A DNA stretch of 64,000 bases. Source: Lachnospiraceae bacterium (GTDB lineage: Bacteria; Bacillota; Clostridia; Lachnospirales; Lachnospiraceae). How positions within the stretch are numbered: the first letter of the stretch is position 1; each line of letters opens with the position of its first letter. The notes beneath the pieces were generated by a model. It was not told where the DNA came from. It searched no databases and saw nothing but the letters and a program-made list of their open reading frames with translations. The DNA is taken from contig JAEEQL010000001.1 in NCBI GenBank assembly GCA_016285265.1, forward strand, positions 5,003-69,002, given 5' to 3'. Made by a program: the position numbers and the translations under genes. Positions 3,699-58,771 of the stretch are shown here, in pieces.

Positions 3699-5372
3699 AT
3701 GAGAAGTGATTCCGTAAAAGTCGGTGACGCACAGGCGCCCCACAGAAGTCTTTTTAACGCACTTGGAATGACAGAAGAAGAGAGAAAGCGTCCTCTGATC
3801 GGTATCGTTACTTCATATAACGAGATCGTTCCCGGACATATGAATCTCGATAAGATAGCCGAGGCAGTCAAGCTCGGTGTTGCAATGGCAGGCGGTACTC
3901 CCGTGCTTTTCCCTGCAATCGCAGTATGTGACGGTATCGCTATGGGACATATCGGAATGAAGTACAGCCTTGTCACCAGAGACCTCATTGCCGACTCAAC
4001 CGAGTGTATGGCAATGGCTCACGGTTTTGACGGACTTGTATGCATACCCAACTGCGACAAGAATGTTCCCGGACTTCTTATGGCCGCAGCAAGGGTCAAT
4101 ATTCCCACCGTTTTCGTTTCCGGCGGCCCCATGCTCGCAGGTCACGTTCACGGCAAGAAGAGAAGCCTTTCTTCCATGTTCGAAGCAGTCGGAACCTATG
4201 CTGCAGGCAACATGACCAAAGAAGAACTTACCGAGTTTGAGGAGAAGGTATGCCCCACATGCGGATCTTGCTCAGGTATGTATACCGCAAACTCCATGAA
4301 CTGCCTTACCGAAGCGATCGGTATGGGCCTTAAAGGAAACGGAACCATCCCCGCTGTTTATTCCGAGCGTATCAGACTTGCAAAACATGCCGGAATGAAG
4401 ATCATGGAGCTTGTTGAAAAGAACATCCGTCCCAGGGACATCATGACCGACAAGGCATTCAAGAATGCACTTACCGTAGATATGGCTCTCGGATGCTCAA
4501 CCAATACCATGCTCCATATTCCCGCCATCGCTAAGGAAGCCGGTGTCGAGCTCAACATGGAGATGGTCAACGAGCTTTCGGCCAAGACTCCCAACCTCTG
4601 CCACCTTGCTCCCGCAGGTCCCACTTATATGGAAGACCTCAATGAGGCAGGCGGTGTATATGCTGTAATGAATGAGCTCTCCAAGAAGGGTCTCATCGAA
4701 GAGGATTGCTTGACCGCTAATGCAACCACCATCGGCGAGAATATCAAAAACTGCATTAACCGCGATCCGGAAGTCATCCGTCCCATCGACAATCCTTACA
4801 TGGCTACCGGCGGAATCGCAGTTCTTAAGGGTAACCTCGCTCCCGATACCGGTGTTGTCAAGCAGTCCGCTGTTGTTCCCGAGATGCTTGTCCACGAAGG
4901 ACCCGCAAGAGTATTTGACTGTGAAGAAGATGCGATCGCAGCTATCAAGGGCGGCAAGATCGTTGCGGGTGACGTGGTCGTCATCAGATATGAAGGACCT
5001 AAGGGCGGTCCCGGAATGAGAGAGATGCTCAATCCCACCTCCGCTATCGCGGGAATGGGACTCGGATCATCAGTAGCTCTTATCACTGACGGAAGATTCT
5101 CCGGTGCATCCAGAGGCGCATCCATCGGACATGTTTCGCCCGAAGCTGCAGTTGGAGGACCTATTGCACTTGTTCAGGAAGGCGATATCATTTCAATCGA
5201 CATCCCTAACAGAAAGCTTGATGTCAAGATTTCCGATGAGGAGATGGCTGACAGACGTAAAGCATGGACTCCCAGAGAGCCCAAGGTCAATACCGGATAT
5301 CTTGCAAGATACAGAGAGCTTGTTACCAGCGGAAACCGCGGTGCCGTTCTCGAGATCCCCGGAAATAAATAA
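3699..5372 (+). CDS. ilvD: Dihydroxy-acid dehydratase
   Basis: [46 protein letters not shown]. Confidence 0.97.
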
Positions 5373-42650: not shown

Positions 42651-43346
42651 ATGGCAAATATTCTTGTTTGTGATGATGATAAAGACATTGTTGAGGCGAT
42701 AGAAGTCTATCTCAAGGATGACGGACACTTTATATATAAAGCATATAATGGAGCCGATGCGCTTGAGATCCTCGGAAAAGAGGACATTCAGCTCGTTATC
42801 CTCGACATCATGATGCCTGTTATGAACGGCATCGAAGTTGCGGAAAAGATAAGGGAGAGCAGTACTCTTCCCATAATCTTCCTGTCCGCAAAATCGGAGG
42901 AAAACGATAAGGTCACCGGACTTAATGCCGGTGCGGATGATTATATCACCAAGCCTTTTTCTCCTGCGGAGCTTACCGCAAGAGTCAGGTCAAACTTAAG
43001 GAGATACACGCTTCTCGGAAGCATCAACGAAGGCGGTAATACTCATATCTACAATTGCGGCGGACTCAGCATAAATGATGAGACCAAGACCGTTACCGTC
43101 GATTCACAGCCCGTAAAGCTTACACCGATTGAGTACAACATCCTCCTGCTTCTTCTGAAGAATAAGGGAACCGTTTTTTCCACTGACAAGATCTATGAAT
43201 CCATCTGGAACGAAGCTCCCATTGCGACGGACAATACCGTTGCTGTCCATATCAGACATATCAGGGAGAAGATCGAGATAGATCCCGGTCAGCCCCAGTT
43301 CCTTAAAGTTGTATGGGGAGTAGGATATAAGATAGAAGATCTATGA
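42651..43346 (+). CDS. OmpR-family response regulator
   Basis: ILVCDDD, LDIMMP..NG, GADDYITKPF, LTPIEY.IL, HIRHIREKIE, VWGVGYK. Confidence 0.96.
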   Translation: MANILVCDDDKDIVEAIEVYLKDDGHFIYKAYNGADALEILGKEDIQLVILDIMMPVMNGIEVAEKIRESSTLPIIFLSAKSEENDKVTGLNAGADDYITKPFSPAELTARVRSNLRRYTLLGSINEGGNTHIYNCGGLSINDETKTVTVDSQPVKLTPIEYNILLLLLKNKGTVFSTDKIYESIWNEAPIATDNTVAVHIRHIREKIEIDPGQPQFLKVVWGVGYKIEDL

Positions 43347-46036
43347 AAAAGACCAGAGCCAAAAAATTAATGTTCCATCTCGGAATGCACTTATGTGCAT
43401 TTATTTCCGTACTCTTTTTGGCCGACATATTTTTCTGCAGTTATATTTCCGTAAGCTATCTCGGAGGAGATTCCAGGTATGCGCTCAATCCCTTTCCCTC
43501 TCAGGAGACCGAAGAGATCGACGGCATAATCACCGATATATTCTCCCGTCAGGCATCCGATATCATGAAGTATACTGCCGCAAAGGAAATACTCGGTGCC
43601 CAGAACGGATTAAAGGATAACCGTATAGTTGAACTGTCCGATTATTATCACGGTGCTTATAAGGTGAGCATCAAGCTCTATCTTTCCGATCTTATCAACC
43701 TCGGAAGAAGAGGTATTGAATATAACGAAAGAAGCCTTACCGTTCAGGACTTTGTCTATTATTTCGGAGATCCACTCTATGCGGAAAATTTCGCTCTTGA
43801 TCCTTACGGAAATCTTTACTTCATCGGCTTCGAGACCATTAACAGATATAAGTTCTCGGAGAAATATACGACCAATGTTTCCGAAGAAGACGAAGAGGGT
43901 GTGGATGAGAATGTCGTAAAGGCCATACGCAACACTGCGCCTTCGGATCTGATCAACCTTGTAGCCCAGTACTGTGTCAGGGAATATCCCGAGCTTGTTT
44001 CATTGTCCAGCTGGGAAGACGGCATGATCTATGTCACCTTCAAGGAGCCCGTAATCGATGATGCCGGCTTTAACTCATTCATGAGCTATAAGGAGTCCAT
44101 CCGTAACTGGGACGGATACTTTACGGCCATTGATGAACTTAAGGTAACTTCCTCGCTCTTTTCCGCAGCATACGATGTTTACAGGGAAGGAGAAAAGCTT
44201 TACGAAGACGACAATTCCAATCTCGTATATACCATAAGGACTAAGGATACCGAAGGCAATACAAGGGTGTATACGAATTATCCCGATTCGAAGAAGTACG
44301 ATGATGCTTCTCTTGCGGATATATACTCAAGCCATTTGTATTACATCATATGCTATTATGACGATCTTGAGTATTCGACACTTTCCGATATTCCCGAGAA
44401 TGTCATCACCGATTCCATAATGATCTATCCCGATGTCTATCCCGACAATACCCATGTCTGGATGTATATTGACGACACGACATCCAGGGCGAACGATATC
44501 TATTACGATCTGCTCTGCAGATATGATTCCGTAAAACAGATCTCGGGCTTGTTCATGATAGTCATCGCATTCCTTACTTTTATCTATCTTGCTCTTTTCG
44601 TTTATCTGCTCTTTATCACCGGTGTCGAATATACCGATGAAGGAGAAGAGTTCAGGGTTTTCCCTCAGGATAAGATCTGGATCGAGGTGATGGCCGCATT
44701 TGCAGTCGGTGCATTTTTCCTTGCCAGATTATATTTCGATTATCTGAAGCAGCTTATCAATGTAAATTATTGCAGGGTAACCTTTGAAAACGGAGGCCCC
44801 TTCAAAAATGCCGGAATATCGTCCTATCTTATATTCGGCATGTTCGGATTCCTGCTTTCGCTTACCGGTGCTTTTATTATTTTCTCCTTTGTAAGAAGGA
44901 TAAGAGCGGGCGTTCTCTTTGAGTATTCGTTCCTCAAAAGGATCAAGATGTTCTTCGACTGGTTCGCTCTCATTTATTCGGGCGGTTCATCGGCTTCGTG
45001 GTATGTTCTGATCCCTTACGGAGCTTTCCTTATCGTAAATGTCGGCGGTGCTGTCTACGGTATGATGAATCTTGATAATGTTGCGATCTCCGCCATCGTA
45101 TTCTCGGTACTGGTTCTGGTCGATATCTTCGTCGGCATCACGCTTTTCCTTGTGACAGCCGAAAAGAAGGAACTGCTTGACGGAATTGCCAGGATAAGGG
45201 CCGGTGAAGTCGATTACAAGATAGATGTTTCTAACCTCCGCTATGAGAACAGGAAACTTGCGGACAGCATCAACAATATCGGAGACGGTATCAAGACGGC
45301 GGTAGAATCCTCTCTTATGGAAGAACAGCTCAGGTCCGAGCTCATAACCAATGTTTCGCATGACCTTAAGACGCCTCTAACCTCGATAATCAACTATTCC
45401 GATCTTCTGAAGAGGGACAATCTTACCGAGGAAAAGAAAAAGGAATACCTTTCCGTTATCGGTGAAAAATCCATCAAGCTTAAAAAACTTCTTGAAGATC
45501 TCCTCGAAGCATCCAAGCTTTCTTCCGGACAGGTTGAGCTCAACAGGGAAAAGACGGATCTTACCGAACTTTTGAACCAGGCGCTCGGAGAATATGAGGG
45601 AAGGTTTAAGAATTCGAAGCTTGAGCTTGTCACGAATGATTTCCCCAGGGCATTTATCTATACCGATCCCGGATGTACATGGAGGATATTCGATAATATT
45701 TTTGAAAATATCTGCAAATATGCCATGAGCGGAACAAGGATCTATGTCGATTACACCGCATCGGACGGATTCGCCTATATCAAGATCAAGAATGTATCCG
45801 CCATAAGACCCAGATTCCAGGGCGACGAGCTCACGGAAAGGTTTATCAGGGGAGATGAGAGTAGGAGCGGTGAAGGAAGCGGACTCGGACTCTTTATCGC
45901 AAAGAGCCTTACACAGGCGCAGGGCGGTACCTTTAAGGTCATAGTTGACGGCGATTTGTTCGTGACCGATATCTCGATCCCCGAGTTCAGCTCCGAGCTT
46001 GAAGAAAAAAGTACAAACCGCAGCGAAGAACAATAA
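43343..46036 (+). CDS. Large membrane sensor histidine kinase
   Basis: Multiple TMs, large extracellular region, H-box NVSHDLKTPL, N-box ENICKY, GSGLGL. Confidence 0.94.
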   Translation: MKKTRAKKLMFHLGMHLCAFISVLFLADIFFCSYISVSYLGGDSRYALNPFPSQETEEIDGIITDIFSRQASDIMKYTAAKEILGAQNGLKDNRIVELSDYYHGAYKVSIKLYLSDLINLGRRGIEYNERSLTVQDFVYYFGDPLYAENFALDPYGNLYFIGFETINRYKFSEKYTTNVSEEDEEGVDENVVKAIRNTAPSDLINLVAQYCVREYPELVSLSSWEDGMIYVTFKEPVIDDAGFNSFMSYKESIRNWDGYFTAIDELKVTSSLFSAAYDVYREGEKLYEDDNSNLVYTIRTKDTEGNTRVYTNYPDSKKYDDASLADIYSSHLYYIICYYDDLEYSTLSDIPENVITDSIMIYPDVYPDNTHVWMYIDDTTSRANDIYYDLLCRYDSVKQISGLFMIVIAFLTFIYLALFVYLLFITGVEYTDEGEEFRVFPQDKIWIEVMAAFAVGAFFLARLYFDYLKQLINVNYCRVTFENGGPFKNAGISSYLIFGMFGFLLSLTGAFIIFSFVRRIRAGVLFEYSFLKRIKMFFDWFALIYSGGSSASWYVLIPYGAFLIVNVGGAVYGMMNLDNVAISAIVFSVLVLVDIFVGITLFLVTAEKKELLDGIARIRAGEVDYKIDVSNLRYENRKLADSINNIGDGIKTAVESSLMEEQLRSELITNVSHDLKTPLTSIINYSDLLKRDNLTEEKKKEYLSVIGEKSIKLKKLLEDLLEASKLSSGQVELNREKTDLTELLNQALGEYEGRFKNSKLELVTNDFPRAFIYTDPGCTWRIFDNIFENICKYAMSGTRIYVDYTASDGFAYIKIKNVSAIRPRFQGDELTERFIRGDESRSGEGSGLGLFIAKSLTQAQGGTFKVIVDGDLFVTDISIPEFSSELEEKSTNRSEEQ

Positions 46037-50670: not shown

Positions 50671-51675
50671 ATGGCAAAGGTAACAGTTCTCGGCGGAGGT
50701 ACATGGGGTATAGGACTTACCATCCTTCTTGCAAATGCAGGACATGATGTAATTGTATGGTCGGCAGTCGAATCCGAGATTGAAATGCTTTCCACCACTC
50801 ATGCACACAAGATGCTTCCCGGGGCAACGATCCCCGAAAGCGTCAGATATACCCTTGATGACAGGGAAGCGGTAACTGACAGGGATATCCTTGTCATGGC
50901 CGTCGCTTCTTCCTTTACCAGAAAGACCGCAAGGAGGCTTGCTCCTCAGATCAAAGACGGACAGATCATTGTTGACGTTGCAAAGGGTATTGAGGAAGGA
51001 ACTCTCAAGACACTTTCCGAGCAGATAAGCGATGAGATACCGAATGCTGACGTGTGTGTTCTTTCCGGTCCCACACATGCCGAGGAGGTTTCCAGACTTA
51101 TGCCCACAACGATCGTAGTGGCTTCCCATAACAAGGAAACCGCACATTTTGTACAGGACGTATTTATGACGGAGACCTTCAGGGTTTATACAAGCTCGGA
51201 TGTAAAGGGCGTTGAACTTGGAGGATCACTCAAGAATGTTGTAGCTCTTGCGGCAGGTATTGCGGACGGACTCGGCTACGGAGATAACGCAAAGGCGGCT
51301 CTTATCACCAGAGGAATTGCGGAGATCTCAAGGCTCGGAGTCAAGATGGGCTGCAGACCCGAGACATTCAGCGGACTTACCGGAATGGGTGACCTTATAG
51401 TAACCTGTGCCAGCATGCATTCCCGCAACAGAAGATGCGGAATACTTCTCGGTGAAGGCAAGAGTCTTAAGGAGGCACAGGAAGAAGTGGGAATGGTTGT
51501 CGAAGGAATATATTCCGCAAAAGCTGCCATCGAACTCGGAAGGAAATATGAAGTAAGTCTTCCCATCATAGAACAGGTCAATCTGATCCTCTTCGAAGGA
51601 AAGGATGCCGGAGAAGCGGTCAAAGAACTTATGCTCAGGGAAAAGAAGGATGAAGTATCCGATACTCAGTGGTGA
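50671..51675 (+). CDS. gpsA: NAD(P)H-dependent glycerol-3-phosphate dehydrogenase
   Basis: GGGTWG, AKGIE, LSGPTHAEE, GGSLKNV, GMGDLIVTC.S.HSRNRR. Confidence 0.97.
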   Translation: MAKVTVLGGGTWGIGLTILLANAGHDVIVWSAVESEIEMLSTTHAHKMLPGATIPESVRYTLDDREAVTDRDILVMAVASSFTRKTARRLAPQIKDGQIIVDVAKGIEEGTLKTLSEQISDEIPNADVCVLSGPTHAEEVSRLMPTTIVVASHNKETAHFVQDVFMTETFRVYTSSDVKGVELGGSLKNVVALAAGIADGLGYGDNAKAALITRGIAEISRLGVKMGCRPETFSGLTGMGDLIVTCASMHSRNRRCGILLGEGKSLKEAQEEVGMVVEGIYSAKAAIELGRKYEVSLPIIEQVNLILFEGKDAGEAVKELMLREKKDEVSDTQW

Positions 51676-53113
51676 TGCCTCTTTTCAAATCTTAATATTT
51701 TCCTCTGTTTTGATAATCGCGGTGCTGTTTCTGACAGCATCCGGTACTTTTTACATCAAAATGAGGAAAAAATACTTCCTTGAGAACATAAGATTAAATG
51801 AAAAGATCAGACAGATCGGTGATGACAGAAATATCCTGTTGAGCAATCTGACCCGTGAAGTTAAAAGCGGGATGATCCGCGTGCTCGGAATGAATGAGCT
51901 GATCATTCGCGAAAGTCATGACGACATTATCAGGGATCATGCGTATCACATCAAAACATCCGGAGAGGATGTGATAGCCCTTATGCAGGGAACACTCGAT
52001 TACACGAAGCTTGAACGGGGACTGATCGAAGTTCACAGGGAAGACATCGATCTTGCCTCTCTGCTTATAGATGTCATAAGCATTTCCGGACCTTCGCTTC
52101 GAAACAAGGGCATTATCCTTGATCTGTTACTGGATAAAGATACTCCGAGCATCATAAGGGGAGATTACGAGAAAACCAGGCGCAGTCTGATCAATCTGTT
52201 TTCTTTTATCAGCAAGAATTCCACCAAAGGTTATGTTAAGTTTTCGTCCATACACAAAGAGACCGGAGACGGAGAGTGTGAGATCACTTTCAGGATAATT
52301 TGCGAGTCTCTTGTTTCCGATGCTTCCAATCTCGAGAACCTTCTTTTGAACGGCCTTTCCGATAATAAGCTTCTGTTTTCCAAGAAAGAAACCGGTCTGC
52401 TGGAATTCTTTATTGCCGGTAATGTCATCAAAGCCATCGGAGGAGATTTCAAGGTTTTTGAGACCGTTGACGAAGAGCTGGCATTCGACCTTACTGTCAA
52501 TACGGAGATCGTGGATTCAACCGGAATAGGTGACATCAAAAAGGTTGTAAGGAAAAAATCCTTCATCGACAGTGTTGAATCAGTGAGGTTTTATTCTCCT
52601 TCTTCCAGGATCCTTTATGCGGAAAAGGACCGCAGCAGCATTTCCGTGATCAAGACTCTTCTTGAGCCTTCCGGAGTATCCATTGACGTTGCATCGGACT
52701 GTGAGGAAGCACTTACACTGATAAGGATCAATGAGTATGATGTCATCTTTGCCGATCTCGATATGAAGGATGACAAGGGCATCAAGCTGATAAAGCATAT
52801 AAGAAGCGGTGAGCCCAATATACTCGATGTGAGAAAACCATGCATTGCCATAGTGGATGAATCGGATACGATCACCGAAGAAGACATTGGAAGAGGCGGA
52901 TTTACAGATTCCGTTTCCAAGCCTGTCAATCCCGCAACCTTTGAGGATATGATCATAAAATATCTTCCTTCCGACAAGATCGATATCAATGATGAATCGT
53001 ATTTTTGTCCCGGTATCAGATCCGAACATGATATCAGGAAGTATTCCGAAGGCTATGACGATCTTTACAAGTCGGCATTGGGAATTTACAAGAGAGCCAG
53101 GAATTACAGGTAA
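51650..53113 (+). CDS. Degenerate hybrid histidine kinase (TM - HisKA without His - eroded HATPase - REC)
   Basis: H-box position reads LLSNLTREVKSG..VLGMNELIIRES; N/G boxes eroded; REC FADLDM..VSKPV. Confidence 0.8.
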   Translation: MKYPILSGDASFQILIFSSVLIIAVLFLTASGTFYIKMRKKYFLENIRLNEKIRQIGDDRNILLSNLTREVKSGMIRVLGMNELIIRESHDDIIRDHAYHIKTSGEDVIALMQGTLDYTKLERGLIEVHREDIDLASLLIDVISISGPSLRNKGIILDLLLDKDTPSIIRGDYEKTRRSLINLFSFISKNSTKGYVKFSSIHKETGDGECEITFRIICESLVSDASNLENLLLNGLSDNKLLFSKKETGLLEFFIAGNVIKAIGGDFKVFETVDEELAFDLTVNTEIVDSTGIGDIKKVVRKKSFIDSVESVRFYSPSSRILYAEKDRSSISVIKTLLEPSGVSIDVASDCEEALTLIRINEYDVIFADLDMKDDKGIKLIKHIRSGEPNILDVRKPCIAIVDESDTITEEDIGRGGFTDSVSKPVNPATFEDMIIKYLPSDKIDINDESYFCPGIRSEHDIRKYSEGYDDLYKSALGIYKRARNYR

Positions 53114-53125
53114 GGTAAAGATAAG

Positions 53126-55792
53126 TTGATCTTCAATGAGAGCTACAATATATACTTTGAACTTTCGGTATTGCCCATTGAGCTGATACTGCTTATTTTT
53201 GTGTACGGCAATTACAAGGATGACCGTGACACCAAGGCTACGAATTACAGGTTCAAGATATATGCCCTTCTTACAACGGTGGGAACACTTTTAGACATTG
53301 TCACCGGCATAACCTTTATGTGGGGTGATACGCTCCCCGCATGGTTCCATATTGTTTTCCTTTCGCTCAATTTCCTGATGGGACTCAGCAGTTCCATGGG
53401 ATTCTATTTGTACATGGTCGCTTTTTCGGGTCTTACCAAAAACGAACATGTGCTGAACATGATCGCTTATGCGATCAATTCTGTCTATGTGATCATATTG
53501 ATCATAAACTATTTCACCGGCATCGCTTTTACGTACGTACCGGGTATCGGTCTTGTCAGAAATGTTCTGTACGAAACGGTCGGTTATCTGTTCCCGCTTT
53601 ATTATATTGCCCTCGGAGTATCTCTTTCCTTTTTCAGGAAAAAGAGATTCACAAAGGTTCAGAGGACATTTCTTTCCAGCGGATTTCTGATAGTTCTCGT
53701 GATTTTCATAGTTCAGGTCAAGCTCGAGGAAAGAGCGCAGATGGCATATTTTGTCGGAGGCATCTGTCTCCTTATGCTGTTCCTTACTCTGGAAACTCCC
53801 GAATATACCGAACTGGTCAATACGCTGGATGAACTTGACCGTGTCAGAATGGACGAAAAAAGGGCGCTCGAAAGGATCAAAAGATCCGATGAAGCAAAGA
53901 GCGCATTCCTTTCCCATCTTTCACATGAGATCAAAACTCCCATTAACGCGATAATGGGTTATACCGAAGAGATCCTTAAAGCCAATGTTTCCGATGATGT
54001 TAAGGAAAATGCGGCAAGTGCATTCAAGGGGGCAAGAAGGCTCGATCAGTTCTTCACGGATATAGTCGATAACATGTCCGATATCAGCGAGTACGGGAGC
54101 AGTGCGCTGATCTCCCTCGAAGATATAGAAAAAGAGCTTTATCTGAATGTCGGTTTCGATATCGAAGAAAAGAAGAATTCGAAAGATTTCGTATCCAAAT
54201 CCGGCTTTGAAGGCCTTGCATTATCCGATACAGGTTCATATCCCGATTCCTCGATGTACAGGATACTCTGTGTTGACGATAATGAACTGAACATGGAGCT
54301 TTTGGTGCGTACCGTTAAACAGTTCGGTTTTACCGTTGAAGGAGCTGCAGACGGCAAGACCGCCATCGAGATGGTCTCCAAAAATGATTACGATCTTATC
54401 CTGATGGATCATATGATGCCAGTCATGGACGGCGTTGAGGCAATGCATTATATCAGGGATAATTCCCTTTGCGACCTGACACCGATAATCGTTGTAACGG
54501 CAAATGCGGTCAGGGGCGAAAAGGAAAAATATATTTCTGAAGGCTTTGATTCATTCCTTCCCAAACCATTCACAGGCGGATCCCTTCTCAGGGCAGTGGG
54601 TAAATTCCTTCCTCTTGCCACGATGGATACGCTTATCAAGGCGGGTAGCAGATCGGGTATTTCGGGATTCATGCTTGCTTCCACATTTTCAAGACCTCTT
54701 ATCGCACCGGGTACCAAGATCCTCATCGCTGGCCGGGACAGGGAAAGTATTAACAGATTTTCAAGACTTTTCCTTACCACCATGGCAAGGATAGATGTCG
54801 TATACGGTTGTGACGAATGTATCGAAAGACTTTCAGGCGGCGATTACGATATCGTATTTGTTGAAGACGGTCTGCGTTCTGATGATAACCGTTCCATCAA
54901 GACATATATCTGGAACAGCGTGGACATACCTGTAATTCTTATTACCGGGAAGAATACTGTTATCGACCCTGCGGTCATCTACGACACTTATACCGATTAC
55001 CTCAGTATCGATGATGATTCCGATATCATCGACGCGATGCTTCTTCTGTATCTTCCCAAGGATAAGGTCAGCGTTGTCGGTACAGGTGAGGATAAGAAGA
55101 AATTATCACTCGATATCACATCATCCTATGATCTGGCTGACGGTACCGAAAAGGTTAAAACACATACCCAGGTCAAGGAAGAAAGCTTTAAGCCGGAACG
55201 GACCGGGGAAGCGGATATGTTTATCGGCATTAAAGGCCTCGATGTGGAACAGGGAATCTATAACTGCGGTTCCGAGGAAGGCCTCAAAAAGGCCGCAGAG
55301 ATCTTTGTAAGCACGGCTGATGCCAAGGCAGATGAGATCAGTGAACTTTATACCACGGGAGATATTGACGGATATACGATCAGAGTCCATGCTTTAAAGA
55401 GTTCCGCACGGATAATCGGTGCAACCGAGCTTTCGGAACTTGCAAGAGCTTTGGAAGCCGCGGGCAAGGATCATAACACTGATTTCATAAATGACAAGAC
55501 AGAAGACCTGCTTAAGGAATACAGAACATTAAAACAGCTTCTTTCGGAGAGAATGTCCCCGTCCGAACAGGTTGATAAGATTCCCGCAACACCGGATGTT
55601 ACGGTCGATGCTTACAGGACCATTTATGAACTGGCACTTATGATGGATTATGACAGCATAGAGATCATCTTCGAATCACTTCGCAAGTATGAATTCGAAA
55701 AAGCCGATGCGGACAGACTTGATAAGATAAAAAGATCCATGGAAGCGCTTGACTGGGATGCCGTTCTCAGCAGCGCAAAGGAGGCATTATGA
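53126..55792 (+). CDS. Multi-TM sensor with HisKA, two REC and Hpt domains but no HATPase
   Basis: About 7 TMs; FLSHLSHEIKTPINAIMG; REC1 VDDN..LMDHMMP..KPF; REC2 degenerate; Hpt VHALKSSARIIGA. Confidence 0.85.
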   Translation: MIFNESYNIYFELSVLPIELILLIFVYGNYKDDRDTKATNYRFKIYALLTTVGTLLDIVTGITFMWGDTLPAWFHIVFLSLNFLMGLSSSMGFYLYMVAFSGLTKNEHVLNMIAYAINSVYVIILIINYFTGIAFTYVPGIGLVRNVLYETVGYLFPLYYIALGVSLSFFRKKRFTKVQRTFLSSGFLIVLVIFIVQVKLEERAQMAYFVGGICLLMLFLTLETPEYTELVNTLDELDRVRMDEKRALERIKRSDEAKSAFLSHLSHEIKTPINAIMGYTEEILKANVSDDVKENAASAFKGARRLDQFFTDIVDNMSDISEYGSSALISLEDIEKELYLNVGFDIEEKKNSKDFVSKSGFEGLALSDTGSYPDSSMYRILCVDDNELNMELLVRTVKQFGFTVEGAADGKTAIEMVSKNDYDLILMDHMMPVMDGVEAMHYIRDNSLCDLTPIIVVTANAVRGEKEKYISEGFDSFLPKPFTGGSLLRAVGKFLPLATMDTLIKAGSRSGISGFMLASTFSRPLIAPGTKILIAGRDRESINRFSRLFLTTMARIDVVYGCDECIERLSGGDYDIVFVEDGLRSDDNRSIKTYIWNSVDIPVILITGKNTVIDPAVIYDTYTDYLSIDDDSDIIDAMLLLYLPKDKVSVVGTGEDKKKLSLDITSSYDLADGTEKVKTHTQVKEESFKPERTGEADMFIGIKGLDVEQGIYNCGSEEGLKKAAEIFVSTADAKADEISELYTTGDIDGYTIRVHALKSSARIIGATELSELARALEAAGKDHNTDFINDKTEDLLKEYRTLKQLLSERMSPSEQVDKIPATPDVTVDAYRTIYELALMMDYDSIEIIFESLRKYEFEKADADRLDKIKRSMEALDWDAVLSSAKEAL

Positions 55793-56544
55793 GTGAATCC
55801 GTTCTTATGGTGAGCAAAATAGACAGCTTTATGGTAAATGCCATCAAGTATAAGCTTGAAGCCGAAGGTTTTCTGTGTTCCTTTTCATCTACCGAGTCGC
55901 CTTACATAAAGAATTCGATAGACGAAAAGAGGATAATCATCCTGTATATGGATGAATCCATTCTTGAAAGACCGGATCTGCTCATTTATCTGAAGGATAA
56001 ATGCAACGACGACGAAAAGAAGCTCATACTGATCGGATCGCCTGCCGATTTTGCGGTCGTTAACGAATACATTTCGGATAACTTCCTTGCCGGTAAACTG
56101 GAAAGACCGATCGATATGCAGGTTCTCATCGCGCTTTTAAGAGGCGTTCAGACGACCGCCCGTGAAGACAGCGATAAAAAGAGCGTATTGATCGTTGATG
56201 ATGACACGACTTATCTTCGAACGGTAAGAGACTGGCTCAAAGATAAGTATAAGGTTTATATGGCCAACTCGGGCATACAGGCACTTACATGGCTTGCGAA
56301 GAATCATGCGGATCTTGTACTTTTAGATTACATGATGCCCGTGGCATCGGGGCCCGAGATCCTCGAGATGATCAGGAGCGAAGAGTTTTCGAGGGATATT
56401 CCGGTAATATTCCTAACGAGCAAGTCGGACAAGGACAGTGTCAGAAATGTAATGAAACTTAATCCTCAGGGATATCTTTTGAAATCGATAAGCAAAGATG
56501 TTCTCAGGACTGAACTTGATAAATTTTTTAACGGAGATATTTAA
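55789..56544 (+). CDS. Tandem-receiver response regulator with no output domain
   Basis: N-terminal degenerate REC; C-terminal REC VLIVDDD..LLDYMMP..FLTS..YLLK. Confidence 0.88.
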   Translation: MSESVLMVSKIDSFMVNAIKYKLEAEGFLCSFSSTESPYIKNSIDEKRIIILYMDESILERPDLLIYLKDKCNDDEKKLILIGSPADFAVVNEYISDNFLAGKLERPIDMQVLIALLRGVQTTAREDSDKKSVLIVDDDTTYLRTVRDWLKDKYKVYMANSGIQALTWLAKNHADLVLLDYMMPVASGPEILEMIRSEEFSRDIPVIFLTSKSDKDSVRNVMKLNPQGYLLKSISKDVLRTELDKFFNGDI

Positions 56545-57357
56545 ATGGAAAAATTTGAAGGAACAAGTGGATACGTTGCAAGCCCGGAGCTTATGGATTC
56601 CGTTAATATTGCGATAGCCCTTAAAAAGCCTCTCCTCATCAAGGGAGAACCCGGAACCGGCAAGACCATGCTTGCACAGTCCGTTGCCGATGCTCTCGGC
56701 AAAAAGCTCATCATCTGGAACATTAAGTCCACTACCAAGGCCCAGGACGGTCTTTATATGTATGACACCATCCAGAGACTCTATGACGGTCAGTTCGGTG
56801 AGGGCGGAGTAGATGATATAGCCCACTATATCAAGCTCGGAAAACTCGGTGAAGCTTTCGAGAGCGAAGATCAGGTTGTTCTTCTTATCGATGAGATAGA
56901 TAAGGCAGACCTTGAATTTCCCAATGACCTTCTCTGGGAACTCGACCAGATGGAATTCTATATAAACGAGACCAAGAGAACCGTAAAGGCTAAGAACAGA
57001 CCCATCGTGATCATCACTTCAAATGCGGAGAAGGAACTTCCCGATGCATTCCTCAGAAGATGCATTTTCCATTATATTGAATTCCCCGGTAAGGAACTCA
57101 TGGAAGAGATCATCAGGGTTCACTTCCCCGATGTCGAGGAGCATCTTCTTGCCGAGGCAATGGATGTTTTCTATCAGATACGTGATATAAGGGATATCCG
57201 CAAAAAACCCTCCACATCAGAGCTCATTGACTGGATCAATGCACTTCAGATAGGCGGAATTCCTTACGGACAGATCAAGACCAGGCTTCCTTTCATCGGA
57301 GTTGTAGTCAAGAAAGATGAAGACCTCGAGCAGACCGCTCATCATAATTTCGAATAA
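56545..57357 (+). CDS. MoxR-family AAA+ ATPase (CoxD-like)
   Basis: Walker A GEPGTGKT, Walker B LLIDEIDKAD, IITSN.EKELPDAFLRRC. Confidence 0.93.
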   Translation: MEKFEGTSGYVASPELMDSVNIAIALKKPLLIKGEPGTGKTMLAQSVADALGKKLIIWNIKSTTKAQDGLYMYDTIQRLYDGQFGEGGVDDIAHYIKLGKLGEAFESEDQVVLLIDEIDKADLEFPNDLLWELDQMEFYINETKRTVKAKNRPIVIITSNAEKELPDAFLRRCIFHYIEFPGKELMEEIIRVHFPDVEEHLLAEAMDVFYQIRDIRDIRKKPSTSELIDWINALQIGGIPYGQIKTRLPFIGVVVKKDEDLEQTAHHNFE

Positions 57358-57378
57358 ATAATTTATAGAAGTAAATTT

Positions 57379-57548
57379 GCGGGTGACGCGAAATGTATGA
57401 GGATTCGAGCTTCGGCGTCTGCGTTAGAAACGGACGCCTGGCCTGAACGAAGTGAATGGCCTGCGGCATGAGCTGAAATATTCGTCGAATAAGTTTCGCG
57501 CTTTACGCCGAAAAAAGCGAGAAGACTCATACATTCCGTGTCAATCGC
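57379..57548 (+). repeat. Dispersed ~170-bp structured repeat, copy 2
   Basis: Homologous to 10980-11148 in the same orientation; terminal inverted repeat preserved. Confidence 0.9.
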
Positions 57549-57562
57549 GGAGTAGTTTAAAA

Positions 57563-58771
57563 ATGTTTTTGAATTTCTTTGAAAGTTTAAGAAAGCACGG
57601 TATCAATGTTACTTTGGGAGAGTGGCTCGATCTGGAGAATGCACTTGATGCTTCCCTGATCGGAGGCCAGCTCTCAAGGTTTTATCACTGTGCAAGAATG
57701 ATACTGGTAAAGTCCGAGACGGATTACGACAAGTATGATGAGGCATTCGAGGAATGTTTCGGTAAGATCAAAAGTGACCCTGAAGTGGGCAAGGAAATGC
57801 TCCGCTGGCTGGATAAGTCCGATATGATGCAGCTTGCAGAGATGGAAGCCAAGGATCATCTGAACAAGATGGAAGGCGAAGGCATCATAATCGACAAAGA
57901 AGATGTCGAGCAGAAGTTCAAGCAGCGTCTTAAGGATCAGGATTCCGAGCATAACGGAGGGTCCTTTTGGATAGGAACAATGGGTAAGACTTCCTTCGGT
58001 AATACCGGAGGTAATATCGGAGGCGTAAGAGTCGGAGGTGCAACGGGTTACCAATCCGCATTTGCGGTCATCGGAGCCAAAAAGTACCGCGATTTCCGTG
58101 ATGACAGGGTCATGACCAACCGTCAGTTCCAGCTGGCATTCAGAAGACTCAGACAGTTCTCTTCCAGACTCGATACTCCCGAGAGGGAACTTGATATCGA
58201 CAAGACGGTTGATGAGACCTGTAACCAGGGCGGAGTTCTTAAGATAGAGATGAGAAAGCCGAGGAAGAATTCGGTCAAGCTCCTTCTTCTCATGGATTCG
58301 GGCGGTACGATGATACCTTATTCGGAGCTTTTGAACGATCTTTTCCAGGCCGTAAATAAAAGTAACCACTACAAGGAAGTAAAATGTTATTATTTTCATA
58401 ACTGCATTTACTCCCATGTATATAAGACACCGGAATGCGAAAACGGTGACTGGGTTGAAACAAAATGGCTTTTCCGCAACACGGATTCCGATTATAAGGT
58501 TATAATAGTCGGGGACGCCGCAATGGCACCCGAAGAGCTTTATTCGGACACCGGAAACTACCGCGGCCCGAATGACGGCCTCAGCGGTGAGGAATGGCTC
58601 AAGTCCCTAAAGAGACACTATAAAAAGGTCGTCTGGCTCAATCCCAAGATGGCTCCCGGAAATGCTCCGTGGAGAGAAGTCGAGACGGCCGTAAAGCAGA
58701 TGTTCCCTATGTATAAATTATCCGTGAAAGGCCTTGATCAGGCGATGACCAAGCTCATGGAAACAAGATAA
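57563..58771 (+). CDS. VWA-domain protein (CoxE-like partner of MoxR ATPases)
   Basis: Start at ATG 57563 after GGAG; GGSFWIGTMGKTSFG, LLLMDSGGTM (MIDAS-like), YFHNC, IIVGDAAMAP.EL, WLNP. Confidence 0.9.
   Translation: MFLNFFESLRKHGINVTLGEWLDLENALDASLIGGQLSRFYHCARMILVKSETDYDKYDEAFEECFGKIKSDPEVGKEMLRWLDKSDMMQLAEMEAKDHLNKMEGEGIIIDKEDVEQKFKQRLKDQDSEHNGGSFWIGTMGKTSFGNTGGNIGGVRVGGATGYQSAFAVIGAKKYRDFRDDRVMTNRQFQLAFRRLRQFSSRLDTPERELDIDKTVDETCNQGGVLKIEMRKPRKNSVKLLLLMDSGGTMIPYSELLNDLFQAVNKSNHYKEVKCYYFHNCIYSHVYKTPECENGDWVETKWLFRNTDSDYKVIIVGDAAMAPEELYSDTGNYRGPNDGLSGEEWLKSLKRHYKKVVWLNPKMAPGNAPWREVETAVKQMFPMYKLSVKGLDQAMTKLMETR

Follow-up and report, generated by a model that had tools for sequence, protein, structure and literature searches.

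An unlinked kinase without its histidine is a candidate partner for a phosphorelay trio without an intact ATP-binding domain in rumen Lachnospiraceae

The usual view takes a histidine kinase to be a self-sufficient homodimer. To our knowledge, heteromeric kinases whose subunits divide the work have been described in very few cases, FasBC and RetS-GacS. In group A Streptococcus, FasB and FasC have been shown genetically to form a heteromeric kinase in which histidine and sensor come from one subunit and the ATPase from its partner (PMC12675982). RetS acts on another kinase by contact between their DHp (dimerization, histidine phosphotransfer) domains and not through its own autophosphorylation (PMC8498467), and DivL (PMC4211667) and PsmA (PMC12963549) are conserved kinase-like proteins without the histidine that work by binding partners. 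In Corynebacterium glutamicum, a ChrS protein with a frameshift in its catalytic and ATP-binding (CA) domain works by heterodimerising with its paralog HrrS (PMC9491836). Here we describe three adjacent genes, A, B and C, in a 64,000-nucleotide stretch of a rumen Lachnospiraceae genome (assembly GCA_016285265.1, contig JAEEQL010000001.1, forward-strand positions 5,003 to 69,002; hereafter the window, whose numbering we use), together with an unlinked gene of the same genome, K, which keeps the CA domain that B lacks and lacks the histidine that B keeps.

The trio lies on the plus strand, as do all its features given below. It encodes a membrane-anchored pseudo-hybrid histidine kinase of 487 residues (A, 51650..53113), an 888-residue protein with a TTG start (B, 53126..55792) that combines six transmembrane helices, a DHp domain (H267), a receiver (D428), a pseudo-receiver, a histidine phosphotransfer (Hpt) domain (H755) and a C-terminal extension, and a tandem-receiver regulator without an output domain (C, 55789..56544), made of a pseudo-receiver and a receiver (D180). 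The coordinates bear out the tight linkage reported in the first-pass annotation of the window: a 12-bp gap separates the stop of A at 53113 from the start of B at 53126, B and C overlap by 4 bp, and A, from the start common to all its orthologs (51650, MKYPILSG), overlaps gpsA by 26 bp. That annotation had also concluded that the module cannot start its own relay, and we agree, having found no canonical ATP binding in 15 orthologous loci or in about 45 database clusters. A six-frame HATPase_c search of the whole 2.7-Mb assembly gave 39 matches, 36 of them above the family cut-off, and none lies over A or B even at E<=0.01. All genomes used here are metagenome-assembled genomes from the rumen, this one comprising 190 contigs with 5% estimated contamination. 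Public records label A, B and C only as 'response regulator' or 'hypothetical protein'.

B retains the phosphotransfer part of a HisKA/HATPase_c kinase, with the histidine and the E-x-x-T motif, and has no HATPase_c part. Domain maps of A, B and C were made with Pfam at a permissive threshold (E<=1). For B they gave HisKA at residues 257-314 (40.8 bits, cut-off 26.9), Response_reg at 380-491 and Hpt at 725-794; the check for a complete HATPase_c in B, suggested in the first-pass annotation, came back empty, and PF02518 is absent from all of the roughly 45 clusters of the B family (members at least 43% identical). The protein opens with a six-helix membrane sensor (residues 7-225, 53144..53800, by hydropathy) that ends in a juxtamembrane ETPEY motif and is homologous to the N-termini of K and of the proteins P0050, P0058, P0061 and P0072. 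H267 (53924..53926) stands in the H-box HLSHE[IM]KTP.NAI.GY and is invariant in 16 orthologs, all of which retain the E-x-x-T phosphatase motif (for its role, see PMC3510030). The place of a CA domain is taken by a linker of about 50 residues (326-376, 54101..54253) that varies in sequence and length and is never a CA domain. In two species (loci L020/G024 and L021/G020) this DHp-REC linker holds a GPGM low-complexity repeat of 30-40 residues, and it is therefore free to vary.

The first receiver of B (54254..54616; Pfam 95.3 bits) is canonical, with the complete signature of an acidic pair (DD), D428 (54407-54409), a threonine and K480. It is nearly invariant, with a ratio of nonsynonymous to synonymous substitution rates (dN/dS) of 0.00-0.04; all such ratios were obtained by the Nei-Gojobori method, and dS is near saturation for the deeper pairs. 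Next come an invariant motif, GIS.FMLASTFSRP, and a domain with E580 at the Asp site (54656..55075, by alignment), homologous to the receiver of P0128, a separate REC-Hpt protein of relatives. The Hpt domain, followed by a conserved C-terminal helical extension (55226..55789; Pfam Hpt 34.5 bits, cut-off 24.6), is 34% identical to P0128, and its YTIRVHALKSSARIIGA and H755 (55388-55390) are invariant across orthologs. The earlier description of B, with an intact histidine, one good receiver, an Hpt domain and no HATPase, stands, with the refinement that its second receiver, though still of receiver fold, is a pseudo-receiver.

The reciprocal defect is found in K (contig C189:14177-16066 of the same genome, outside the window). 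A tblastn search with the membrane part of B found no paralog in the genome; K was found only with a profile of the B membrane domain built from B relatives, and it is the one other protein in the genome that the profile detects. K consists of a six-helix membrane sensor, a DHp domain, a HATPase_c domain and a receiver, with Pfam scores of 35.4 bits for HisKA, 104.7 for HATPase_c and 73.9 for Response_reg, and has no Hpt domain. Its H-box reads FLSFVSRELKTP, the histidine being replaced by arginine. K and B are collinear over the six helices, the juxtamembrane motif (ETP[DE]Y) and the DHp domain (26% identity, E 1e-21), and B is the only complete protein in the genome with a His-bearing DHp domain and no CA domain. 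The assignment of K to this organism is based on its presence in all 17 related assemblies and on a tree that broadly matches the major groups of the housekeeping tree.

K orthologs (56-96% identity) occur in 17 of the 17 genomes of the clade that bears the trio, including two in which the trio is lost (G003) or reduced (G012), and in none of the 17 other genomes of the genus, where the nearest paralogs are 35-38% identical and have the H-box MSHEIRTP. All 17 orthologs have Arg at the His site together with intact N, G1 and G2 boxes and receiver residues. The gene evolves under strong purifying selection (dN/dS 0.05-0.09; CA domain 0.02-0.11; DHp domain 0.01-0.07) and is covered by the same rumen metatranscriptomes as the trio. 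G050, which contains locus L058, is one relative whose A-type kinase is intact, and there a K-like kinase with this sensor retains the histidine. In G003, 37 of 233 otherwise invariant positions of K are changed, compared with 0-7 in the other genomes; for comparison, the EAL gene next to K has 13 of 186 and an unrelated neighbouring gene 7 of 306 such changes. A comparison of tree-based rates (branch ratio 6.0 for G003 vs 2.1-4.4) was only mildly informative, the count of invariant sites being clearer. We regard the change of K in G003 and the co-distribution of K and B as suggestive.

In all 16 clade genomes whose contig continues past the K stop codon, K is followed by a 654-residue membrane EAL protein (Pfam 217.8 bits; here C189:12169-14133, minus strand; locus L120:3-1454); in G002 the contig ends inside K. 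Because this protein adjoins K and relatives of B are fused to HD-GYP domains, cyclic di-GMP turnover may be an output of the network.

A has the layout of a hybrid kinase, with one transmembrane helix, pseudo-DHp, pseudo-CA and pseudo-receiver domains and a conserved C-terminal tail. Its only Pfam match is Response_reg (336-450, in the numbering of a longer open reading frame from 51605); the NCBIfam models TorS, BarA and ArcB align along its whole length, with scores far under the cut-off, and it is collinear with the intact hybrid kinase P0125 over DHp, CA and receiver (25% identity, E 2e-42). The phospho-accepting position is R69 (51854..51856), which is Arg in 15 of 15 orthologs (S/T-R-E/L) and in the database member P0142. 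In the pseudo-CA domain (residues 131-300, 52040..52549) the ortholog alignment shows F186 in place of the N-box Asn, no G1 Asp (C218) and a degenerate G2 box, though our own CA hidden Markov model still picks up the homology and the domain evolves at dN/dS 0.08-0.20. The pseudo-receiver (residues 321-440, 52610..52969) has D369 and K424 here, neither of them conserved: the phospho-Asp column holds D, E, N, H or R among orthologs, and the Lys is gone in several. Because the histidine is always Arg, the ATP boxes are lost and the receiver Asp and Lys are not conserved, A is a pseudo-enzyme in all three domains. The first-pass reading of A as a HisKA-HATPase-REC layout without phospho-His or ATP boxes is upheld residue by residue; of its receiver the fold is present, but the varying Asp column makes it a pseudo-receiver and not a canonical one.

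The fold of A has outlasted its active sites. An AlphaFold2 (AF2) model (mean predicted local distance difference test score, pLDDT, 79.5) has a transmembrane helix running into a DHp hairpin, an alpha/beta sandwich in the CA-like domain, which corresponds to the Bergerat-type fold, a receiver fold and two C-terminal helices. Foldseek placed ShkA, GacS and the kinase region of RetS at the top, with HK853 and DivL also found (E down to 5.5e-17). The best conserved part of the protein is its 35-residue tail (53009..53110; PGI..DIRKYsEGY..L..A..iYKR..Y), with dN/dS 0.01-0.09 and helices predicted at 459-465 and 470-486. The A family stands sharply apart as an island of 24 clusters at 35% identity or more, beyond which identity drops to 28% and the matches are intact kinases; none of the 24 clusters carries a Pfam HATPase_c annotation.

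C gave a single Pfam match, Response_reg at residues 133-243. Its C-terminal receiver (132-247) is canonical, and the residues DDD, D180 (56326-56328), T210 and K232 are invariant in 34 family members. The N-terminal domain (1-128) retains the fold but has no acidic pair and has R106 in place of the Lys, so that the two receiver folds without an output domain described earlier are retained, the first of them as a pseudo-receiver. The AF2 model (pLDDT 90.1) shows two (beta-alpha)5 domains, and across both of them Foldseek matches the PleD receiver pair best. Elsewhere in the genome (C46:32929-33699, minus strand) lies an orphan C paralog of 42% identity that has neither a kinase nor an Hpt gene close to it.

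The trio is a working gene set and is not decaying. It occurs in 15 species without stops or frameshifts, the lowest identities being 34% for A, 44% for B and 70% for C, and H267, D428 and H755 of B and D180 of C are invariant. dN/dS is 0.07-0.17 for A (mostly 0.04-0.28 for each of its pseudo-domains), 0.06-0.10 for B and 0.01-0.07 for C, next to 0.01-0.08 for the flanking genes; A orthologs are 34-82% identical vs 82-98% for the flanks. At 98-99% identity, contigs from bovine rumen metatranscriptomes extend over gpsA, A, the junction of A and B, parts of B and the junction of C with the AAA gene; they are assemblies and may include DNA. The earlier alternative of decaying pseudogenes, with sporadic orthologs, frameshifts and neutral evolution, is rejected because all three genes are under strong purifying selection with intact reading frames.

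All occurrences of the trio, between gpsA and a MoxR-like AAA gene in 15 of the 34 genomes of the genus, fall within the one clade of 17 genomes. In G003, gpsA is followed directly by the AAA gene and the trio is absent. In G012 the junction holds a 623-residue B' (six transmembrane helices, DHp with its His, REC and Hpt, with the start codon of A fused on) and neither A nor C, and this genome has no C-type regulator anywhere. B' is also found in a second species (87% identity), with dN/dS of 0.077 between the two.

Distant relatives of B (32-34% identity) belong to a four-gene module composed of an A-type hybrid kinase, a CA-less B-like protein (6TM-DHp-REC), a REC-Hpt protein and a C-type regulator. 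The A-type kinase of the module has an extracellular sensor, the His, an intact CA domain and a receiver. B unites the second and third genes of the module, C shares 40% identity with the fourth, and A stands in place of the first. Judged by these homologies, the trio descends from the four-gene module, with A having died and the two middle genes having fused into B. Other relatives (P0050) have kept a CA domain behind the same B-type sensor, and in other lineages 6TM-DHp-REC proteins without CA are found again, joined to different outputs such as HD-GYP. The six-helix domain is also seen in proteins without DHp or CA that adjoin C-type regulators (L045, 6020-7276; L055, 9777-12143) and acts like a mobile sensor module.

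We surveyed about 60 C-type loci (L039-L104) of rumen Lachnospiraceae, Butyrivibrio, Selenomonas and Treponema, with domain maps from profiles that were built for this analysis and are not curated. Some orphan regulators aside, the surveyed C-type regulators adjoin a kinase with an intact CA domain, either a hybrid kinase-Hpt or such a protein in split form; the trio is the only type of C locus in the survey with no intact CA domain in any kinase-like neighbour. Members of the regulator family consist of a pseudo-receiver and a receiver in about 250 residues without an output domain, and their partner kinases are often about 1400 residues long, with beta-propeller sensors like those of hybrid two-component systems (HTCS).

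The first-pass annotation had listed several ways in which the relay might be charged, among them a kinase elsewhere in the genome. We favour this option, with K as the candidate, since its arginine at the His site and intact CA domain complement B exactly. We consider the chances about even that K and B together form a reciprocal split kinase, K supplying the ATPase and B the histidine and the Hpt domain, with C as the end acceptor and A as a pseudokinase modulator. Pairing between K and B would, we infer, involve the membrane and DHp regions in which they are homologous, and H267 of B would be phosphorylated in trans by the CA domain of K. The phosphoryl group would then pass to a receiver Asp, D428 of B and possibly also that of K, from there to H755 of B and finally to D180 of C. 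A would most likely be a binding partner that modulates the complex in the manner of RetS or DivL, a role proposed because these relatives by fold act by binding partners.

Such a heteromeric kinase is the simplest account of the data because selection has kept the ATPase of K without a histidine of its own, and the histidine of B is invariant without an ATPase. A serves as an internal control, since in the same genomes its unused CA domain lost the boxes that the CA domain of K kept; B' and K persist in the lineage from which A and C have gone. The stronger proposal, a natural and obligate split kinase that arose by reciprocal degeneration among three related sensor proteins, all under purifying selection in a genus-level clade, is a tentative one to which we assign slightly less than even probability. 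In it K, unlinked to B and of the same sensor type, would have kept only the ATPase, B only the phospho-His and Hpt, and A neither.

Several observations weigh against a K-B kinase. The co-distribution of K and B concerns one clade and so amounts to just one evolutionary event; G003, too, provides one natural experiment, in which the EAL neighbour is also somewhat accelerated (13/186). K and B are unlinked, and K may have a job of its own, because it forms a conserved pair with the membrane EAL protein. K and B are just 26% identical, with DHp helices that show no striking similarity. In other lineages the CA-less B-type proteins adjoin an intact, His-bearing A-type kinase, which makes A, not K, the ancestral partner of B. 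By analogy, a kinase without its His could also be a DivL-like sensor with regulatory ATP binding. The pairing is, moreover, predicted from the shared sensor and DHp homology, the co-distribution and the change of K in G003.

Of the other explanations, B might be a signal-gated phosphatase or phosphate sink without a dedicated kinase, a role known for kinase-inactive, phosphatase-only sensors (PMC8292422); acetyl phosphate or cross-talk would charge C and the first receiver of B, and the DHp domain of B would remove phosphate, or return it via Hpt, under control of the six-helix sensor. All orthologs keep the H-E-x-x-T motif in the B H-box (motif role, PMC3510030), CA-less 6TM-DHp-REC proteins recur elsewhere with outputs such as HD-GYP, and B' is under purifying selection in a genome devoid of C-type regulators. 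This explanation, to which we give a modest probability well below that of a K-B kinase, leaves unexplained why K has intact ATP boxes without a His, why it is confined to the same clade and why it changes faster where the trio is lost; in other lineages, moreover, the CA-less protein always adjoins an intact kinase. Charging in trans by an ordinary kinase other than K is unlikely in our estimation, although a genome with about 36 HATPase_c matches and 9 Hpt domains offers candidates. Two Hpt-less hybrid kinases with an intact His (C49:536-2785 and C136:17628-19985) could feed the Hpt domain of B, or a paralogous hybrid kinase-Hpt could cross-talk to C, genomes of the genus having 2-8 C-type regulators, many beside hybrid kinases whose Hpt is 40-49% identical to that of B. 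None of these candidates has the sensor of B or a complementary defect, paralogous pairs are normally insulated, and the invariant H267 would be left without a role. We set aside the neighbouring kinase at 43343-46036, named earlier as a possible donor: it comes with an OmpR-type regulator of its own, and genomes that lack the trio have it in synteny.

Degeneration of A bears on two further explanations. In the A-B heterodimer put forward in the first-pass annotation, A would have to bind ATP non-canonically. The genes are adjacent and co-transcribed, as an RNA contig spans their junction, relatives have an intact kinase at the position of A beside a CA-less B-type gene, and the CA fold of A is retained under purifying selection. 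We nevertheless consider such a kinase very improbable, because 15 of 15 orthologs, and also P0142, the A-family database member read, lack both the Asn that binds Mg (F186) and the Asp that binds adenine, and because B' exists in a lineage that does without A; the G2 box is degenerate, and HATPase_c is annotated in none of the 24 A-family clusters. That the trio moves no phosphate at all, as a pseudo-enzyme scaffold or a relic on its way out, would fit the complete degeneration of A, the clean loss of the trio in G003, its reduction to B' in one lineage and its faster evolution relative to the flanks (A 34-82% vs 82-98% identity). This, too, is improbable: in every domain dN/dS stays far under 1, the genes of 15 species are free of stops and frameshifts, H267, D428, H755 and D180 are invariant with their motif neighbours, and RNA contigs cover the genes.

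The trio sits in a conserved chromosomal setting. gpsA (50671..51675, plus strand; assigned by Pfam) forms the upstream flank, outside the system, and a MoxR-like AAA ATPase gene (56545-57357) and a gene for a von Willebrand factor A (VWA) protein (57452-58771) form the downstream flank (56545..58771, plus strand; Pfam and NCBIfam), the AAA gene beginning on the base right after the stop codon of C (0-bp gap). The order der-plsY-gpsA-A-B-C-AAA-VWA-tyrS is maintained in 15 genomes. The AAA protein aligns with the NCBIfam MadB family far below cut-off, its VWA partner is CoxE-like, and each is more than 90% identical across the clade. A functional link between this pair and the trio is unsupported, the pair being present in 34 of 34 genomes of the genus, those without the trio included. 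Within the first 100 bases of A, just past the gpsA stop, lies a terminator-like hairpin that has a T-rich tail (51721-51741, plus strand), and RNA contigs cross this region all the same; promoter and terminator scans gave results at chance level.

Within the genus the content of the gpsA-AAA junction differs: it is empty in G003 and holds B' alone in G012 and the trio in 15 genomes; several genomes of the other clade have an opposite-strand metF there. The G021 junction contains metF and a 1410-residue hybrid kinase-Hpt with Reg_prop and Y_Y_Y domains that has its own C-type regulator (junction loci L023 and L029-L036). We rejected A and B as a simple split of one such long hybrid kinase because both align to the same C-terminal half of the 1410-residue protein. 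The membrane-lipid input hinted at earlier from the der-plsY-gpsA position finds no support either, because the trio is an insert at a variable junction that is empty or holds metF or another kinase pair in sister genomes.

If the K-B reading is true, the locus and K offer a clear-cut case from nature of two partners, each of which has irreversibly lost the part that the other retains, and two membrane sensors must meet before any phosphate enters the relay. A few purified fragments would then suffice for a direct test of signalling by heterodimer only. Within one genome, the CA domain of A has lost its nucleotide-binding boxes and that of the His-less K has kept them. The case is also a warning for annotation, as A, B and C stand under uninformative labels and K would be taken for an ordinary hybrid kinase. 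The wider family of hybrid kinase-Hpt proteins with output-less tandem-receiver regulators abounds in rumen Lachnospiraceae, Butyrivibrio, Selenomonas and Treponema and is not known to have been studied.

A full-text literature search found no paper on such a system. Each ingredient has a precedent; for the combination, complete reciprocal losses in unlinked paralogs that share a sensor type, with a third copy dead and all of them conserved in a clade, we found none. For A, the nearest kinase regions by model are those of RetS and GacS (Pseudomonas aeruginosa; PMC8498467; PDB 6dk7 and 7n0e). RetS, however, keeps its His and CA domain, whereas A, known here from its sequence and model, has lost both residue sets and the receiver Asp. 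DivL has a Tyr at the phospho-His site, according to the PDB entry title 'tyrosine kinase DivL'. PsmA is like A in being a fully dead hybrid with receivers that also lacks ATP-binding residues, but it is soluble and has no phosphotransfer partner nearby, whereas A sits inside a relay operon.

B resembles the CA-frameshifted ChrS in having lost the CA domain and kept the DHp domain. The ChrS variant arose in the laboratory; in B the deletion is natural and clean, is conserved across the genus and is accompanied by a receiver and an Hpt domain of its own. Phosphotransferases of the Spo0B/ChpT type have a DHp domain with the His, a degenerate CA-like domain and no sensor, and B differs from them in having no CA-like domain and a six-helix membrane sensor. 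The enterobacterial RcsC-RcsD-RcsB relay likewise joins an Hpt-less hybrid kinase, comparable to K, with a membrane-bound Hpt carrier that has an ATPase-less kinase-like region, comparable to B; NCBIfam also gave a weak RcsD alignment for A. The present set is nevertheless of another type: RcsC has the His and RcsD lacks it, whereas here the Hpt carrier B keeps the His and the ATPase carrier K has lost it, and C has no DNA-binding domain, in contrast to the DNA-binding regulator at the end of the Rcs relay.

The closest likeness in the division of labour is to FasB and FasC, also a membrane-bound, kinase-like pair, in which the kinase domain of the His and sensor partner is dispensable and the other partner gives the DHp domain and the ATPase. 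As in that pair, one protein here carries the His (B, without a CA domain) and the other the ATPase (K, with Arg at the His site in 17 of 17 orthologs). The Fas genes, however, are adjacent and both proteins have all domains, whereas the losses in K and B are complete and reciprocal and the genes are unlinked; K and B are, in addition, hybrids with receivers, accompanied by an Hpt domain, a tandem-receiver regulator and a third, fully dead kinase.

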